Source: a virus. Taken from it: a stretch of 10,646 nt of DNA. The notes under the pieces were generated by a model. It saw only the letters and a program-made list of their open reading frames with translations. It searched no databases and was not told the origin of the DNA. Made by a program: the position numbers and the translations under genes. The DNA lies in IMG/VR virus record IMGVR_UViG_3300018015_000341, one strand, 5' to 3'. This document shows positions 1 to 10,646 of this stretch, in pieces (the first letter of the stretch is position 1; each line of letters opens with the position of its first letter).

Positions 1-2010
1 CAGGCTTGTTGCAATAGTATCGTCTGTAATTCTAACACTAAGCACTTCCACATCGTAGATATGCATTCCGTTCTCTTTGAACAAATGTCCAGGTCTTTCA
101 GTTGTCCCATTGGAAATACCTAGTACGGTGTCCCTTATTATATCGGTTGAGCTGTCATAGAATTCTTCAATTCCCTTCTTCTTGATAGCATTGTTGATAA
201 CTGACCTCAAATGCTGAGTTAGCAATTTAACATAATTCTCGACATCGAACCACTTTTCAGGATCGCCAACAAAGTTGACAAGGTACGATAGTCGTATCTC
301 AACCTTGACAAGATCTCTGGTTTCCACAGTAGTTATGTCTGACACTTTGTTGTTTGTTACTCTCAGATATGCAGTCTTAATTAATCTATCGTCACTCTTA
401 GGTTTGCCAGTTGACAACTCCATTATACCAAGAGACTCGTCATACTCAAGAAGTACAGTTTTCGGACCAACGACCACACGGCGGTTTCCTCCCTTGCCTA
501 TTATTAATATTGCATATCCTGTCCAGATGTCAATACTTACCGCCCCAGAATATTTGGTATCGAGAGTTATCATTCTGGGAGGAGTGAACGTTGTTTTTCT
601 GTCTATAGCGTCCCCTGCAAATTTTTCTTGAGAAATTCCCAATCCAAATGTTGTAATATTGTAACCTGGGATGGTACTTCCTGATAAAGATCTGGCATTT
701 CTCATTGCATCGTGTTCTGTAACAAATTCATCGGCTCTCTTGCTACGTGTGACTGACATCATCATTTTGTTATATTCCAATGCCTCATCATTTCCTGGGA
801 ACCATATCGAAGCAATCTTAGGATCTAAGACTCTTCTTACAATTACTTCCTTTCTTGGATCAGGTAGTAGCATTGTCGGCCCTCTCTTCAGTACTATTTC
901 TCCGCTTATACGATTTAATACATAGCGCGCCTCGCCAGCAGGAATCGCTACTGAATGATGTTTCTCCTGGCCATCATATTTAATAATAGCATGCTCAGGT
1001 CTCGGGTAATAAATCATACGATCCTTACCAGTTATAAATAATTCTTCTCCAACTTTATGGTCTTTTTCATCTTCATCTTTGTAATCCGCTATGATCTTGA
1101 TATATAACCCAGATATCTCGTTCAGTTCTATAGCACGAAATTTTTTGGAGTTGTTCTCTGTAATAAATGTTTCAGTTGGCTTAGGGAATACCACTGCAGG
1201 ACCTCTTACATATCTTTTGTTCCCATCTTCATCGAGGAGAATACAATATTCAAGCCTCTATAGAGTTACCGCTTTTCGCACAAAGCTATCGTTGAGGTTT
1301 TTGATATCATCTCTTTCTGGCAATACTTCAATACCAGTTGGGGGAATATAGAAAGATACTTCCGTACCCTTTATTGTTAACTGTTTTCCTGTGGTAAGAT
1401 CTGGTTTAGGTATCTCTTTTTCTTTTATACTTTTATTCTCTTTGTCTTCTTCTGACGTATTTATATCTTTATTTTCAACCTTGATTTCTATATCTTCCTT
1501 ATTAATAGTAACATTTGAAGGTTTGATAACCGCTTCATTCCAATTTTTTGTTGCTTCTTCTTCATTGTAAACGCGAACAAGCAAATATTCGTTGGATTTT
1601 AGATCATGCCCTGGAATAACTTTTGCAATCTGTCCTGCCCAGAGAGGAAATGTGATTGGTCCTCTTATATTAACTTTACGGCCATAGTCAAGTTCTTCCA
1701 TTCCGCTAGATCCTTGTTTAGGATGTTTGTCTTCTCTTGCAGGATTTTCCAGTACTAAATACGAACCATCTTTTGCAACTGGGAATTGTTTAATGGCAAC
1801 CTGAATATCGCATTCTACAAATTCTCTTTTTTCGTCATCATATCTTACAGGCTGATCAGTACCAGCCAATGATGTCTTAAATGGCCCTACGCAAACACCG
1901 ATAATCCCTTTTGTCTTGTCCAATACAAAGGCGAATTGGTTCTGAGCTATAATAAGATCTCTATCTCTCGCCAATCCGCTTCTTAATCTATCTCTTTCAA
2001 ATTCATCCAT
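1..2010 (-). CDS. Major vault protein (MVP)-like protein. The N-terminal part is the 250-aa ORF 1258..2010. The same reading frame continues without further stops through 1..1257 and leaves the window, so the protein is more than 669 aa. The two parts are separated only by a single in-frame TAG at 1258..1260. The gene is either interrupted (pseudogene or sequencing error) or translated by read-through or suppression.
   Basis: I hand-translated the minus strand of 1..1257 in the frame of the 250-aa ORF and found no other stop. The sequence reads ...FVRKAVTL*RLEYCILLDEDGNKRYVRGPAVVFPKPTETFITE.... There are several ~55-aa repeats of the vault pattern (G-x-x-W/L-x-V/I-x-G-P-x-x-Y/F-x-P-x-x-E-V), for example GKQLTIKGTEVSFYIPPTGIEVLPE, EYCILLDEDGNKRYVRGPAVVFPKP and GEIVLKEGPTMLLPDPRKEVIV. 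These match the repeat domains of eukaryotic MVP (compare [38 protein letters not shown]). A SPFH/band-7-like 'shoulder' segment follows (SDITTVETRDLVKVEIRLSYLVNFVGDPEKWFDV...LRSVINNAIKK). The TAG aligns with a position inside a conserved repeat, so a sense codon is expected there. The start has a Shine-Dalgarno: caGGAGAaatacaacATG (ATG = revcomp of 2008..2010). It is not in the ORF track because the C-terminal part has no stop inside the window. Confidence 0.7.
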
Positions 2011-2091
2011 GTTGTATTTCTCCTGAACAATTATTTCATTATTAACTATTATTTACTCCTATTCGTCATATTTCTCCTGACCGATGACTTC

Positions 2092-2883
2092 TTATTCGCC
2101 TGTATCCCCATTGGCAACCTTTTCTCTAGTTCTATTTAGGGATATATCGTAGTAATCCTCTAGTTCTTGATTCGTGCCTCTCAACCCTTCCATGACCTTT
2201 TCTGTCCAGTCTAGATACTCAATAAATCTTTCTTTTGTCCAATCTGGACTAGAGTTTATATTGCTAATTTTGTCAGCAATTTTTATGAGCTTTGCACCAA
2301 CTGACCTACTGGGAGCATCTTCGATTTGTAACCGTTTTCTTTCTGCTTTTGGCAAACTCTTATCATCAGTAACTTCCATAACGAGATCTAATACTTCCTG
2401 ACCAAAGAGTGAAAAAATTTCCTCAGGTTTGGTGTCAGTATCTTCAATAATATCATGTAATATTTCAGCAACCAGTACTGGAATATATCTGACTTTTCCA
2501 ATTATCCAAAGTATACTCAAAGCTTCTAACGGATGGTTTATATATGGCAACTTATCCTTATCCTTTCTTCTCTGGTTGCGATGTTTGATGGCAGAAAATT
2601 CTACAGCCCTGATTATCTTGTCTAGATCATCATCGCTAAACGTTGTTACAATAGTTTTGTGTGTCATGCACGATTCTTGTTCTCTTCCAAGATTCTTGAA
2701 AACTTTGACTTCATCATTTCTCACAAAAATATGATTTTCTGTTATCTTGAACTCTTCTCCACACTCTGGACATTCTTCTATATTTCCTAAATCTTCATAT
2801 GCTTGTCTTAATCCGTCGTATACCTTGATTGTCTGTCCTTCACATTCCCATGACAAGCATATTAGCTCGAACTTATGACTCAT
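2092..2883 (-). CDS. MESH1/HDDC3-type small alarmone hydrolase ((p)ppGpp 3'-pyrophosphohydrolase of the RelA/SpoT HD-domain family). It carries an N-terminal ~80-aa Cys4 zinc-ribbon extension.
   Basis: The HD hydrolase motifs are near-identical to metazoan MESH1 and bacterial SAH: AIKHRNQRRKDKDKLPYINHPLEALSIL (His-Asp metal site), ILHDIIEDTDTKPEEIFSLFGQEVLDLVMEVTDDKSLPKAERKRLQIEDAPSRSVGAKLIKIADKISNI (ED/DTD motif plus the KLADRLhN-like helix). N-terminus: C-x3-C (CLSWEC) ... C-x2-C (CPEC). Stop is TAA (2092..2094). A GGAAG-like Shine-Dalgarno lies upstream of the ATG at 2881..2883. Confidence 0.88.
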   Translation of the reverse strand: MSHKFELICLSWECEGQTIKVYDGLRQAYEDLGNIEECPECGEEFKITENHIFVRNDEVKVFKNLGREQESCMTHKTIVTTFSDDDLDKIIRAVEFSAIKHRNQRRKDKDKLPYINHPLEALSILWIIGKVRYIPVLVAEILHDIIEDTDTKPEEIFSLFGQEVLDLVMEVTDDKSLPKAERKRLQIEDAPSRSVGAKLIKIADKISNINSSPDWTKERFIEYLDWTEKVMEGLRGTNQELEDYYDISLNRTREKVANGDTGE

Positions 2884-2928: not shown

Positions 2929-3702
2929 TTATCCTGAAATGGCTACTATTTCAATTTCTGGATCTGTCTGTTGTGTGTTTTGAGACAATTCCAGGGGGGT
3001 TTGGTTTTGTACAGCCATCTGATCACTTCTCTCTCCGGTAACTGTTTCAACTGTTTTTTCGATGGATTTAGCTGTTTCTTCATGTTCTTCTGCAGGTTTT
3101 GCCTTTTGTAAACCTTGCTCTTGATCTGCCTTTTGTAAACCTTGATCTTGTTCTGCCTTTTGTAAACATTGCTCTTGCTCTGCCCTTTGTTTGCACATAC
3201 GCAGATATTTTTCAGTGAATTCCATGCCTCTTAGTTCGTACCCTTTGAATATCCCTTTGTTTATTGTTGGATAATCTTTGCACTTTAGACATATGAACTT
3301 TATCGCAGGTCTTGGAGTACTGTTCTTATTATTGTCAGCAATTCTATCTATCTTTGTGACAACACTATATGTTTTGCATTTGTCACAAGGTAAAAGATGT
3401 CCTCTTCTATATTTCGTATGCTTTCCGTCTACCATACATTTGTTCTTGTGCTTCAGCGTACAACCGACAATAATGTCATGTCTGGAACAACTATCGCAAT
3501 CGTTTTTTATATCGTCATTTCTTAGATAATGTTCATTTTTTGGAAAATTTTCGTTTGGTAATAATTTCTTTTTTTCGTCTGTTACTATTTGGTCTATTAA
3601 AGACATTATAGCCTTTTCGAACGTTTCCACTCTACTTTTTTCGCCGTGACCAAACTCTATACATATATTATGCAATATTTCGGAATAAGACTTTTTTTCC
3701 AT
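2929..3702 (-). CDS. Hypothetical Cys-rich protein (257 aa). It has multiple C-x2-C zinc-ribbon-like pairs, then three in-frame 9-aa Q/E-rich repeats, then an acidic tail. Function unknown.
   Basis: Complete ORF with a strong Shine-Dalgarno: aaAAGGAGAGtaaaaaATG (ATG = revcomp 3700..3702). Stop is TAA. Cys pairs: CDSCS...GC...C, PCDKC, ICLKC. The repeat LQKAEQ(E/D)QG is encoded by 27-bp DNA repeats. Confidence 0.6.
   Translation of the reverse strand: MEKKSYSEILHNICIEFGHGEKSRVETFEKAIMSLIDQIVTDEKKKLLPNENFPKNEHYLRNDDIKNDCDSCSRHDIIVGCTLKHKNKCMVDGKHTKYRRGHLLPCDKCKTYSVVTKIDRIADNNKNSTPRPAIKFICLKCKDYPTINKGIFKGYELRGMEFTEKYLRMCKQRAEQEQCLQKAEQDQGLQKADQEQGLQKAKPAEEHEETAKSIEKTVETVTGERSDQMAVQNQTPLELSQNTQQTDPEIEIVAISG
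3101..3190. repeat. In-frame 27-bp tandem repeat, 3 full copies (3101-3127, 3128-3154, 3155-3181) plus a partial fourth, inside the 257-aa CDS.
   Basis: gccttttgtaaaccttgctcttgatct / gccttttgtaaaccttgatcttgttct / gccttttgtaaacattgctcttgctct, with 3-4 mismatches between copies. 27 bp is 9 codons, giving the peptide repeat ...QKAEQEQCLQKAEQDQGLQKADQEQGLQKA.... Confidence 0.85.
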
Positions 3703-3714
3703 TTTTTACTCTCC

Positions 3715-3740
3715 TTTTTTGTTATTCTTTTTTGTTATTC
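3715..3740. promoter_or_regulatory. Perfect 13-bp tandem direct repeat (ttttttgttattc x2; minus-strand GAATAACAAAAAA x2). It sits immediately upstream of the Shine-Dalgarno of the 257-aa gene and is a candidate operator or promoter element.
   Basis: Copies at 3715-3727 and 3728-3740. They share the core AATAACAAA with the repeat pair upstream of the ATPase gene (6477-6518). Confidence 0.4.
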
Positions 3741-3776
3741 TTTTCTGCAGATCAGTTTCGTATAAGTTCCATTATT

Positions 3777-3935
3777 CTATGTTTTTGTATAAACTCTTTT
3801 TGTAGGACGTCTGCTCCTTATACCAATTCTCATTGTCTTCGAATACTCATTTTTTGAGTTACGTCTTCTTCTCGCACCGATCCATTTTGTCTTATGACAT
3901 TCGTTTTTTGAGTTGCGTCTTCTTCTTGCATACAT
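3777..3935 (-). CDS. Candidate small ORF encoding a 52-aa, extremely Arg/Lys-rich peptide with an internal duplication: MYARRRRNSKNECHKTKWIGARRRRNSKNEYSKTMRIGIRSRRPTKRVYTKT.
   Basis: The ATG (revcomp 3933..3935) is preceded by ttAGGTGcggacaATG. The Shine-Dalgarno overlaps the TAG stop of the upstream ATPase gene, an arrangement typical of translational coupling. The frame stays open for 53 codons in AT-rich DNA. The ARRRRNSKNE duplication is encoded by two ~29-bp direct repeats (about 3849-3877 and 3903-3931). It is below the 60-aa cutoff of the ORF track. It could instead be non-coding repeat DNA. Confidence 0.3.
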   Translation of the reverse strand: MYARRRRNSKNECHKTKWIGARRRRNSKNEYSKTMRIGIRSRRPTKRVYTKT

Positions 3936-3944
3936 TGTCCGCAC

Positions 3945-6437
3945 CTAACTAAATAATATATTTTCAAATGCTTTTAAATATGGCATACCATTTATGTCTT
4001 CTGCAAACAATGGCATATATATCCTATTGATATCTGGATACATTTTATCAACCATATTTATGTATCTATTTTGGTGATTTCTTCTTGCTTTACAAAATGC
4101 ACAGTCAAGGTTTGACTGAATGTTATTTATCACCATGTTATTGACTTTTACTCCAGCACTATATAGACTTATGACCAGTCTTTTAGTTTCTTCTATTGCC
4201 ATTAAATCAGGAATAGTTACTATCAAGAATTCTGTTTTGTCTTTATCTGTAATCAGCGTGTGTGCCCTATATATGCTTGCACCCAAATTTTTTATAAATG
4301 TATCTATGTCACCAGTTCTTGCTCCCATCAGTTTCATTATACCTTTATATCTATTATGTAATCCTGAAAAGAACATCAGCCAACTATTTACAACATTTGG
4401 CGCTCCCAATAGTCTTAAAGTATGCCCAGTAGGGGCTGTATCAACACATATAGTTCTATATGAGTTGTTATCTATAAACTCTGATAATTTTACCAGGGAC
4501 ATAAATTCGTCTATTCCTGGTATTGTCAGGTCCATTGCATGATCTGCCTCTTTTTCATTTAAGTTGGCTGTCTTTGTAAGCAACTCTCTGATTGCTCCTT
4601 GATTTGCACCCTTGAATTCTCCCATAAGTTGGTCAGCGTCTATCTCAATTGCGTCCAGCGTGTTTGTTATTCTAGTTGGAGTATCTCCAATTTTTATATT
4701 GAACGAGTCACTTATAGAGTGAGCAGGATCTGTTGAAAACAACAATATCTTTCCTCTCTGTCCTGTTTGGACCAATCTTTCTGATAGATGTAAAGCTATC
4801 GTAGATGAAGTCGTAGTATTATGATTAATAATCGAATTCCCTATATATGAGTGGACATCGTCTATTGCCACATCGTACACTCTGATATTTTCATCCTTGA
4901 TCTCTGTTACATTGTCAGTTATGAACTGATCTGCTATCGTTTCCAAATATTCATACTCAGGCAAATACGATACAGGCTTCATTACTGAAAGTATGTGTCT
5001 TAGGGCATATACTGATGGCTGTCCTTTTGTTATATACCAATATATTAATTGTTGGTCATTTTTTAGATATGTTCTGCAACTGACGGATTTCTTCCTGTTC
5101 AATTTGAACATTTTTTCTCCTATAACAAAATCCTCTTGCCATTCTTGCACTATCTTTCCATTTTGACCTAGTATCTTTAATTCCTCATATAACTTATTTA
5201 AAATTTTTCCGATGTTACGATATGTAACATCTGACCATCTGTCTCTGTTTTCTAATATCTTGACACACTCGTTTAGAATTTCTTTTTTTCTTGAAAGACC
5301 GAAGTTTATTATTTCCGAGAATTTAAGTACTTCTCCTCCTAATATAATTAGTCTATAACTTTCTTCGTACTCTCTGATCTCTTCTCTATACTCAAGTTTT
5401 TTGGTACCTTTTTTGCTGGATAACCTTCCAACTATCCCAAAGTTTAATAGCATTATTTGTAATTGTCTACATAGCTCATACGATGAACTATTATATTCTA
5501 CATACTGGTGACTATCGTCACCATTTCCTACTGTTCCGTCACCATCGAATAATGCTCTTATAAAAGATATTTGGGAATCTCTGTCCGCTTGGAGGATGGA
5601 CCATGGGACCTCTTTGTTTTGCGCCAATTTTCTATATCCCAGATAGTACACAAACTCCTTAAAAGCCACAGAGTTTATGTCAACACCGACAAGTTTTTTA
5701 TCAACATATTTTTCACAAGCGTCTATATTGATTGATTTACATGTGGCTAATGATCTATCGATCATCTCTTTATCGTGGCTAGTTATAATAACACTGGTTG
5801 AATCGTCATTTGCTTCTGCAATTATATATCCCAACAATTCTGCTATATCAGGATTCATATAGCTTACATTTTTCAGCGTTTGATTTTCGCAGTTACTTTC
5901 CTTTTTTCTTTTATGGAAGAAGTTCAACTTCAATCTTTCATTAAAAACATTCATATTATATGATATGATTACTTGATCCGACGTAGAAATGTCTTGTAAT
6001 TTTTTAAATCTTAGTTTCCCATTTCCATCTATTATTATTATCCTATGCTCAGGCGTTCCTGATATTTCCAACCCAAGTCTTGTCTTTATGCTTATAACAT
6101 CGCTTTCTCCCATATCATATCTATCTATTATTTTATATTTGCTATAACTCAACTTTGGAGAAATCGATATTATATTATCGACATTCTTTATGTTATCGTC
6201 TTCTTCTTTTAGCATTTCATTAATGTCATCATCGTTTCTATCGTAGATACTGTCATATAGATTTGTCTGTCCACGATCTATATTTCTATTACTGAAATCT
6301 ATTTTCTTGTGAACAATGTCTTCAATCTTTATTATACCTCTATCGGTCAATATTAGAGTATTCCCACGCACACATTTACCAACCCCTCCCTTCCCTCCGA
6401 CAAATACCAATCTTTTATTTTCTAATGTTAATACCAT
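3945..6437 (-). CDS. Get3/ArsA-family (SIMIBI-class) ATPase precursor of 830 aa. The mature extein is about 311 aa. It is a single ArsA-type domain with a CXXC motif, like archaeal and eukaryotic Get3/TRC40. It is interrupted by a 519-aa intein inserted in the P-loop.
   Basis: N-extein: MVLTLENKRLVFVGGKGGVGK (deviant Walker A GKGGVGK). C-extein resumes with TTTSSTIALHLSERLVQTGQRGKILLFSTDPAHSISDSF (ArsA/Get3 STDPAHSLSD motif). It also has ...ICVDTAPTGHTLRLLGAP (the DTAPTGHT signature) and ...NLDCAFCKARRNH (CXXC). The Shine-Dalgarno is ctAGGAGActgaaattaaatATG. Stop is TAG (3945..3947). Confidence 0.88.
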   Translation of the reverse strand: MVLTLENKRLVFVGGKGGVGKCVRGNTLILTDRGIIKIEDIVHKKIDFSNRNIDRGQTNLYDSIYDRNDDDINEMLKEEDDNIKNVDNIISISPKLSYSKYKIIDRYDMGESDVISIKTRLGLEISGTPEHRIIIIDGNGKLRFKKLQDISTSDQVIISYNMNVFNERLKLNFFHKRKKESNCENQTLKNVSYMNPDIAELLGYIIAEANDDSTSVIITSHDKEMIDRSLATCKSINIDACEKYVDKKLVGVDINSVAFKEFVYYLGYRKLAQNKEVPWSILQADRDSQISFIRALFDGDGTVGNGDDSHQYVEYNSSSYELCRQLQIMLLNFGIVGRLSSKKGTKKLEYREEIREYEESYRLIILGGEVLKFSEIINFGLSRKKEILNECVKILENRDRWSDVTYRNIGKILNKLYEELKILGQNGKIVQEWQEDFVIGEKMFKLNRKKSVSCRTYLKNDQQLIYWYITKGQPSVYALRHILSVMKPVSYLPEYEYLETIADQFITDNVTEIKDENIRVYDVAIDDVHSYIGNSIINHNTTTSSTIALHLSERLVQTGQRGKILLFSTDPAHSISDSFNIKIGDTPTRITNTLDAIEIDADQLMGEFKGANQGAIRELLTKTANLNEKEADHAMDLTIPGIDEFMSLVKLSEFIDNNSYRTICVDTAPTGHTLRLLGAPNVVNSWLMFFSGLHNRYKGIMKLMGARTGDIDTFIKNLGASIYRAHTLITDKDKTEFLIVTIPDLMAIEETKRLVISLYSAGVKVNNMVINNIQSNLDCAFCKARRNHQNRYINMVDKMYPDINRIYMPLFAEDINGMPYLKAFENILFS
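4818..6374 (-). mobile_element. Intein (519 aa, residues C22-N540 of the precursor) carrying a LAGLIDADG-family homing-endonuclease domain. It is inserted between GKGGVGK and TTT of the ATPase P-loop.
   Basis: It has the canonical splicing blocks. Block A is Cys1 (CVRGNTLILTDRGIIKIEDI), with the Cys codon at 6372..6374. Block B is TxxH (GTPEHRI). Blocks F/G are VYDVAIDDVHSYIGNSIINHN, ending in HN with +1 Thr at 4815..4817. Two LAGLIDADG motifs are present: ELLGYIIAEAN (about 5808..5837) and FIRALFDGDGTV (about 5529..5564). Removing it restores a contiguous Walker A motif, GKGGVGKTTT. Confidence 0.85.
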
Positions 6438-8512: not shown

Positions 8513-8827
8513 CTATCTGACAACCAGGCTTTCCCTCAGAAACTCTACTATTATGTCTGTTACTCTATTGTCCATGACAATATCTGGATCAGCAACAACT
8601 TCTTTAAATTTTTCTATTACACACTTTTTACCATCATCAGATGAGAGATATACATCGATAATATCAGTAACTCTCCTGTGTATGAGATCTTTCAACCTTT
8701 CATCATCTAGCGCACTGTCGATTATATCTTCTACATATATATAATCTTCTATTTTTGACTCTATTCTTTCCTCGATCAATTTTTTTATATCCATTTTTTT
8801 GACAATGCTGTCTATATCTATGTCCAT
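8513..8827 (-). CDS. Hypothetical small acidic protein (104 aa, about 27% Asp+Glu, net charge about -11). It has an internal duplication (RVTDIIDVYL / RVTDIIVEFL).
   Basis: Complete ORF. Shine-Dalgarno is tGGAGAcactaaaatATG. Stop is TAG. Composition and duplication were read from the translation. Confidence 0.5.
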   Translation of the reverse strand: MDIDIDSIVKKMDIKKLIEERIESKIEDYIYVEDIIDSALDDERLKDLIHRRVTDIIDVYLSSDDGKKCVIEKFKEVVADPDIVMDNRVTDIIVEFLRESLVVR

Positions 8828-9406: not shown

Positions 9407-9421
9407 TCTCTATCTCAGTTA

Positions 9422-10024
9422 TCAATCCTTTCTAGAAAACTCTCCATATTCTGTTTCTAGATCTGTTACAAACTTTTCCAAATCTTTTCTTGTAACTATC
9501 AGGTGTAGAGAAATTCCCTCTCCTGAGTATACATCACATTCACTAAAACTATATTTGTCAATAAATGTTATAATCGTAAACAGTTCATATTTGCTTGTGT
9601 TCTGCGCATCATCTTCTGGATGTTCTTCAGACTTTGTTTGGTGTTCGTCTGCTTGTATTATCTCCTCTCCAGTTTCTTCAACTGGAACCCAATTATCCTT
9701 TAGGAATGGGAAATATCTTTCATGGTATATGGCAATTTTGGCGTCTGGTTCTATTGGTTCCCAATATTCAGACCCGTTAGTAACCAAACTCTTTTTCAAT
9801 GTTTCTATCAAATAGTCTTTTCTATAATCATCTGCCAAAAATGTGCCATATTTTCTTCTATCCCACCATCTATTCTTTTTAAGAACCTCATCATTTATAA
9901 TTGGGTCGTTTTTCCATAGGAATCTGATTTCATATGCAACCCAGTCTTCTTCGAACCTATCGAATTTAATCTCAAGGGTCAGATTGTCCGATTGTAATTT
10001 TGCCATAGTTGTGTGCCTGTCCAA
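9422..10024 (-). CDS. Hypothetical protein of 200 aa, Trp/Glu/Asp-rich, with no recognisable motifs. The start is uncertain (TTG at 10024 or ATG at 10004..10006).
   Basis: Long open minus-strand frame with TGA stop (9422..9424). Upstream there is a TATATA element (gtgaaagTATATAcaactc), usable as a bacterial -10 or an archaeal TATA box. Confidence 0.5.
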   Translation of the reverse strand: MDRHTTMAKLQSDNLTLEIKFDRFEEDWVAYEIRFLWKNDPIINDEVLKKNRWWDRRKYGTFLADDYRKDYLIETLKKSLVTNGSEYWEPIEPDAKIAIYHERYFPFLKDNWVPVEETGEEIIQADEHQTKSEEHPEDDAQNTSKYELFTIITFIDKYSFSECDVYSGEGISLHLIVTRKDLEKFVTDLETEYGEFSRKD

Positions 10025-10543: not shown

Positions 10544-10646
10544 ATATTTCTTCATTCTTGATATTTCTTCATTCTTGATATTTCTTCATTCTTGATATTT
10601 CTTCATTCTTGATATTTCTTCATTCTTGATATTTCTTCATTCTTGA
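10544..10646. repeat. Perfect 17-bp tandem repeat (atatttcttcattcttg), six complete copies from 10544 to 10645. The array continues past the window edge, so the copy number is at least 6. It is iteron-like.
   Basis: The copies are identical: 10544-10560, 10561-10577, 10578-10594, 10595-10611, 10612-10628, 10629-10645. A unit length of 17 is not a multiple of 3, and every frame hits TGA on the minus strand, so it is non-coding. Confidence 0.95.

Follow-up and report, generated by a model that had tools for sequence, protein, structure and literature searches.

Homologues of MVP, the major vault protein, outside the eukaryotes have been published from bacteria (bioRxiv 10.1101/872010) and from phages, from Asgard archaea and, in bioRxiv 10.1101/2024.11.05.622173, from Borgs. 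The MVP homologue of the Borgs is absent from the host Methanoperedens, and in some of these elements (e.g. Ruby) the MVP gene is followed by a histone gene and then by the gene of the ubiquitous single-copy 3'-exonuclease (Banfield and co-workers; bioRxiv 10.1101/2024.11.05.622173, PMC12660748). Multimer predictions for Borg MVPs gave portions of barrel-like structures (bioRxiv 10.1101/2024.11.05.622173). Borgs with a vault-shell protein beside a histone and an exonuclease, possibly tied to the packaging or protection of nucleic acid, are thus already described. The present analysis concerns IMG/VR virus record IMGVR_UViG_3300018015_000341, a stretch of 10,646 nucleotides (hereafter the window, at its full length), which carries an MVP gene interrupted by an in-frame amber codon. 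The gene is a member of the described Borg MVP family, and the amber codon was traced to a one-base difference private to this contig.

The vault gene lies on the minus strand, a point left unstated in the preliminary description of the window. Its reading frame starts with the ATG at 2010-2008 and reaches window position 1 after 670 codons, where the contig end cuts the gene just past the shoulder domain; the full-length orthologue has 876 amino acids. The features of the gene are the following.

1..2010, minus: MVP homologue, 5' 670 codons (translation, Pfam, phmmer against the PDB, Foldseek)
1258..1260, minus: in-frame TAG, MVP codon 251, which reads cta on the plus strand; the base that varies is 1260, with A on that strand and T on the coding one
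1396..1573, minus: Lys/Glu-rich variable linker of MVP, about amino acids 146-205 (list of single-nucleotide polymorphisms (SNPs), alignment, AlphaFold)
2019..2024, minus: AGGAGA, Shine-Dalgarno-like, 8 nt 5' of the MVP ATG (read from the sequence), the ribosome-binding site already noted in the preliminary description

Assignment to MVP, proposed earlier from the letters of the sequence, was borne out. In the translation joined across the TAG, Pfam detected MVP_shoulder (PF11978, SPFH-like) with an E-value of 1.2e-26 and a score of 93.5 bits (cutoff 25), the match covering amino acids 553-663 and profile positions 2-118 of 118. Vault_3 was matched at amino acids 509-547 (E 6.3e-10) and Band_7/SPFH with an E-value of 3.2e-05. 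Searching the PDB with phmmer returned rat, human and rabbit MVP at ~1e-13 over residues 509-815, a segment comprising the last repeat, the shoulder and the cap-helix. When Glu is placed at codon 251, the window protein is 100% identical to residues 1-670 of three 876-aa proteins (P0122, P0123 and P0124). The window gene is an MVP homologue that is otherwise intact.

Of the architecture claimed for the protein, vault repeats plus an SPFH-like shoulder, the shoulder and one repeat (Vault_3) are supported by profiles, whereas the first ~500 residues gave no profile match. AlphaFold prediction of P0001, a near-identical orthologue of full length, based on a 37-sequence alignment, was confident for the shoulder and the cap-helix only. 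The cap-helix (P0001 helix 664-788, pLDDT mostly 72-89) aligns with that of rat MVP and lies beyond the window end. In the first ~500 residues pLDDT was mostly <50, and the N-terminal repeats seen there belong to a low-confidence model. When this model was compared with the PDB by Foldseek, vault shells of MVP took all of the top 12 places (E 1e-15 to 1e-12) and SPFH proteins came next; the alignments to MVP ran over 900+ columns with E 1e-15, but with a TM of only ~0.15. In the Lys/Glu-rich linker, which varies among close homologues, the consensus of the 37-sequence alignment is undefined and pLDDT is ~30.

The TAG at codon 251 is the sole in-frame stop among the 670 MVP codons, and it is followed by 419 codons (1257 nt) in frame with neither a stop nor a frameshift, in agreement with what had been reported of the sequence. 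The related loci were compared at this position. Two contigs from other samples are the same as the window in all but this base: L034 (Ga0427919_0003828, another JGI sample) matches it over 10,646 bases and L037 (Ga0187878_1002882, a third sample) over 10,525 bases, and both differ at position 1260 only, where the coding strand has G and the codon reads GAG. The same-strain assemblies L001 and L035, with 9 and about 9 differences from the window, respectively, also have GAG at codon 251. GAG or GAA was likewise found in eight ~89%-identical contigs, in 19 bacterial genome loci and in five IMG/VR loci. In all, codon 251 specifies Glu (GAG or GAA) in 33 of 33 related loci, down to a protein identity of 43%; the comparison with related genomes, one of the checks proposed at the outset, thus found a sense codon throughout. 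Close relatives all read AVTLERLEYC, with Glu at the position of the window's stop, and E251 does not vary among the 37 aligned sequences, which reach out to bacterial homologues ~50% identical to the reference P0001. The TAG had been placed inside a conserved repeat. It does fall within an invariant block (L250-E251-R252-L253-E254-Y255-C256), but the low-confidence AlphaFold model does not fix the place of Glu251 in a repeat fold.

Because GAG is present in otherwise identical contigs and Glu in every homologue, the TAG is, as judged by sequence comparison, firmly shown to be a single unprogrammed GAG-to-TAG (G-to-T) transversion of the invariant Glu-251 codon, private to the window contig. 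The window is a whole JGI contig, and its 250-aa N-terminal MVP fragment is present in the protein collection as P0126. Besides position 1260, L001 differs from the window at eight other SNPs, four of which are synonymous. Seven of the nine L001 differences are packed into 94 nt of the Lys/Glu-rich linker (window 1480-1573, minus), three of them changing an amino acid and four being synonymous; this cluster looks like a small recombination or a hypervariable patch between co-existing haplotypes.

The preliminary description had offered three explanations of the stop: a very recent nonsense mutation, a sequencing error, or a codon that is translated. The last of these, in which pyrrolysine incorporation, an amber suppressor tRNA of the host or the Borg, or programmed read-through would yield full-length MVP, found some points in its favour. 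The frame 3' of the stop is intact; the presumed host family is placed in the Methanosarcinales, among which UAG is read as pyrrolysine by some members (PMC12180501); and Borgs encode 5-23 tRNAs (PMC11208441), while the related loci sampled represent a small part of the element. However, the TAG is not conserved: DNA that is otherwise the same has GAG, every homologue has Glu, and the intact downstream frame is fully accounted for by the youth of the change, there being zero other differences. TAG is moreover a routine terminator here. Four confident window genes end on it (3945, 7908, 8513 and 8894), as had been observed and correctly taken to speak against genome-wide reassignment, and in two related 20-kb stretches it makes up 35-38% of the stops (9/26 and 9/24 non-overlapping open reading frames (ORFs)), so that about one-third of the genes end on TAG. 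In pyrrolysine users TAG accounts for <5% of stops, compared to about 17-18% in non-users (PMC12180501), and Borg genes have been called with the standard code 11. A tRNA with a CUA anticodon, the search for which had also been suggested, was not found: ARAGORN detected no tRNA gene, neither in the window nor in any of nine related loci, the longest of which measured 19.4 kb. There was no Rfam family in the 65 kb scanned, and the 120 nt 3' of the TAG showed no stable read-through structure (minimum free energy -19.1 against a shuffle mean of -20.4 kcal/mol, z = +0.41).

The likeness to pyrrolysine decoding in Methanosarcinales or to stop-recoded phages is therefore superficial, consisting only in an in-frame TAG within an intact frame; in contrast to those systems, the TAG site of the window is unconserved, TAG is undepleted as a terminator, and neither a tRNA-CUA nor a stimulatory structure was seen. 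Translation of the TAG is accordingly regarded as very improbable, and we give just as little credence to the specific version in which a Borg- or Methanoperedens-encoded tRNA-CUA or pyrrolysine system would decode the amber codon in the window's element or host to produce full-length MVP with a residue other than Glu at 251. A candidate for recoding is thereby struck off: the stop is a private difference of one base, in an element in which TAG is a normal terminator, and it is not a biological mechanism.

This leaves the two ordinary explanations named before, a recent nonsense mutation or an error in the sequence, and it is highly probable that one or the other applies. In the first, to which we assign roughly even chances, slightly better than those of a read or consensus error, the G-to-T at 1260 would have been carried by the sample DNA itself, as a real nonsense allele of very recent origin. 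Translation would then halt at codon 251 and give a 250-residue N-terminal fragment devoid of shoulder, later repeats and the cap-helix that assemble vault shells, i.e. a null allele whose product is presumably non-functional. Such an allele could persist for a while if several Borg copies share a host cell and intact copies complement it, and Borg copy number relative to the host has been reported as 2:1 to 8:1 (PMC9605863). Support for a real allele comes from the genuine single-nucleotide diversity of the locus (the SNPs of L001 and the private deletion in L035) and from the lack of a second lesion among the 419 codons downstream of the TAG. Short-read assemblers normally require several reads per base, which also favours a variant that was physically present. 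L035 (GCA_017886315.1, JAFMOA010002940.1) has a private 2-bp deletion and five clustered SNPs in the segment equivalent to window 8708-8771, the deletion shortening a 104-aa hypothetical gene to 40 aa; gene-disrupting private differences are consequently not unique to the window.

Several observations weigh against a real allele. The T was present in no other assembly compared, and it creates a nonsense codon at an invariant residue, a kind of change that is more to be expected of unselected errors than of mutations that have survived. The classic artefact of oxidative damage is also a G-to-T. A sequencing or assembly artefact, by which the sample would truly carry GAG and the T would stem from low read depth, from PCR duplicates or from oxidation that turned G into T while the library was prepared, is accordingly a serious contender, with a probability somewhat short of one-half. 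Along its whole length the contig departs from two other assemblies at position 1260 only, the residue struck is invariant in a strongly conserved protein, and the G>T type fits 8-oxoG damage. Next to its sister contigs of 20-40 kb the contig is a short fragment, as is compatible with low depth, but a tandem repeat can account for the break at one end, and co-existing haplotypes may account for that at the other. It is rare for Illumina assemblers to fix a base backed by a single erroneous read, and real strain variation is evident at the MVP locus. A scan of the metagenome collection for the two alleles with a degenerate 24-mer (G/T) returned one contig, with the G allele and from an unrelated sample, and was uninformative.

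Established decay was also considered, in which the lineage would be losing its vault gene and the amber codon would be the first visible step. The premature stop does remove 70% of MVP, but there are no extra stops, frameshifts or excess substitutions, the contig being otherwise base-for-base identical to intact alleles, and relatives at 71-86% identity are all full length, which points to purifying selection in the clade. Long-term decay is excluded on these two grounds, and we consider an established pseudogene the least probable of the readings. If the stop is instead a real null allele, it would lend slight support to the view that loss of the vault gene need not mean immediate loss of the element, and a genuine vault-null Borg lineage would imply that the gene is dispensable for Borg persistence.

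The window ends at MVP codon 670, where there is no repeat and where P0122 and P0001 differ downstream. This end could represent an assembly-graph branch caused by co-existing downstream haplotypes. The MVP fragment of L037 is also 670 aa long, its length being set by the boundary of the locus compared.

Protein searches with the window MVP gave >6,500 homologues at E<=0.001, the best of which had 876 aa and an identity of 99%. Homologues of sufficient length were all full length (819-897 aa), and many of the entries already carry the JGI label 'major vault protein'. The bacterial MVPs found in a scan of Genome Taxonomy Database (GTDB) species representatives span many phyla, from Saprospira to Riflebacteria. 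The description of prokaryotic MVP as a sporadic find is out of date in view of these numbers and of the proteins known from bacteria, huge phages, Asgard archaea and Borgs.

The related contigs of the window share with the published Borg MVP loci the exact order MVP, histone, exonuclease, and they are alike also in a GC content of ~35%, a single coding strand, perfect tandem repeats and nearby genes for endonuclease III and NAD kinase; the window copy differs from the published Borg MVPs in carrying the private amber codon. Compared with the bacterial and huge-phage proteins (Saprospira grandis, Riflebacteria, Eremiobacterota, Anaerolineae; LR756500-LR756503), the window protein is collinear with full-length homologues of 43-59% identity and has the invariant LERLEYCILLDEDG block in common with them, but those genes have other genomic hosts and neighbourhoods, and the Borg clade is tight and separate (71-99% identity). 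Eukaryotic MVP (PDB 4V60, 7PKZ, 9BW5) is of similar length, 861 aa against 876 aa for the orthologue of the window gene, and the shoulder, the last vault repeat and the long cap-helix are common to both. However, structural alignments to it reach 15-19% identity only, the N-terminal repeats are undetected by sequence profiles, and the window protein has a Lys/Glu-rich insert at about aa 165-205.

Unannotated full-length MVP homologues were noticed in huge phages, at 20940-23378 of LR756500.1 and at 17209-19590 of LR756501.1 and LR756503.1. They have 45% identity to the query with 95-96% coverage, and the phage genomes measure 462-735 kb.

Outside the vault gene the following features were recognized in the window.

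2092..2883, minus: HD-domain protein, RelA/SpoT-hydrolase-like, with an N-terminal Cys-rich (CxxC) segment (Pfam HD_4, 3.8e-11)
3100..3190, minus: 27-nt in-frame tandem repeat, 3.4 copies, encoding QEQGLQKAE-like peptides (Tandem Repeats Finder (TRF) and translation)
3714..3744, no strand: 13-nt perfect tandem repeat, 2.4 copies, intergenic (TRF)
3945..6437, minus: ArsA/Get3-family ATPase with a LAGLIDADG intein (Pfam ArsA_ATPase 9.9e-66, LAGLIDADG_3, Intein_splicing)
10544..10646, no strand: intergenic 17-nt tandem direct repeat, 100% identical over 6.1 copies and interrupted by the contig end (TRF)

Borgs have been defined by a GC content of 30-35%, about 10% below that of the host, by coding on one strand per replichore, by at least three perfect tandem repeats and by best matches to Methanoperedens (PMC9605863). 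The GC content of the window is 35.0%, and those of L036 and L026 are 34.9% and 35.5%, values at the top of the range known for Borgs. All credible window genes are on the minus strand, and the called genes of the related 15-20 kb loci are also all on one strand (25/26 and 22/24 when non-overlapping ORFs are counted). No Pfam family was found for seven of the ten window proteins. In the related contigs the MVP gene is followed on its 3' side by genes for an archaeal histone of 97 aa (NCBIfam archaea_histone, 5.9e-26) and a 181-aa RNase_T exonuclease, and further on by endonuclease III, NAD kinase, DUF356 and TatA; a TnpB gene lies upstream. Among the best matches of the histone (E 3e-28 to 6e-25), all that bear an organism name are from Ca. 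Methanoperedens or Methanoperedenaceae (72-83% identity). The core genes of Borgs include those for endonuclease III, NAD kinase and a 3'-5' exonuclease, and in L026 and L033 genes for endonuclease III, NAD kinase and the 3'-exonuclease are within 8 kb of the MVP gene. New Borgs have been found in the SPRUCE peatland. Assignment of the element to the Borgs or to Borg-like/mini-Borg extrachromosomal elements of Methanoperedens is strongly supported by these genomic features but not proven. The window had been described as a prokaryote-style operon; the ribosome-binding site is indeed of the bacterial type, but the stretch most likely belongs to a Borg extrachromosomal element.

Other origins were also examined. 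The whole window had no megablast match in the phage collection, and tblastn found there only the distant MVPs of huge phages. There was no tblastn match in PLSDB, the collection used to look for a plasmid. The GTDB species-representative scan gave only bacterial MVPs of <=51% identity, and the one-strand coding, the perfect tandem repeats and the Methanoperedens-like histone favour a Borg-type element over a cellular genome. ArsA/Get3 was tried as a marker of host taxonomy and discarded: past the close relatives, its matches were <=39% identical and taxonomically mixed.

In every related contig the gene for the HD-domain protein is the one directly upstream of MVP, and its conserved position makes a functional link to the vault protein possible. 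NCBIfam spoT_relA matched this protein in the N-terminal region only and under the cutoff. The intein of the ArsA/Get3-family ATPase occupies amino acids 22-540 (about nt 4818-6374) and is inserted in the P-loop (GKGGVGK|C...HN|T), with NCBIfam recognizing its N- and C-terminal regions. In the ~89%-identical relatives (L026-L033) the gene is intein-free and encodes 327 aa, indicating a presence/absence polymorphism of the intein between closely related elements. A 55-codon ORF (3777-3944, minus) begins with a GTG directly after the TAG of the ArsA gene and in the same frame. Gene callers put a 33-aa gene in a different frame instead (L001 8080-8181), and the 55-codon ORF is probably coincidental.

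The tandem repeats of the window are typical of Borgs. The 27-nt array sits in a 257-aa hypothetical gene (2929-3702). In L026 a perfect 30-nt repeat of 6.3 copies (100%, 9414-9602) fills the spacer between the MVP and histone genes, and 15-nt and 20-nt arrays are present as well, whereas in the window's strain (L001/L034) the 30-nt array is missing and the spacer is 78 nt long. The 17-nt array varies in copy number between assemblies, with 6.1 copies in the window and 7.9 in L036.

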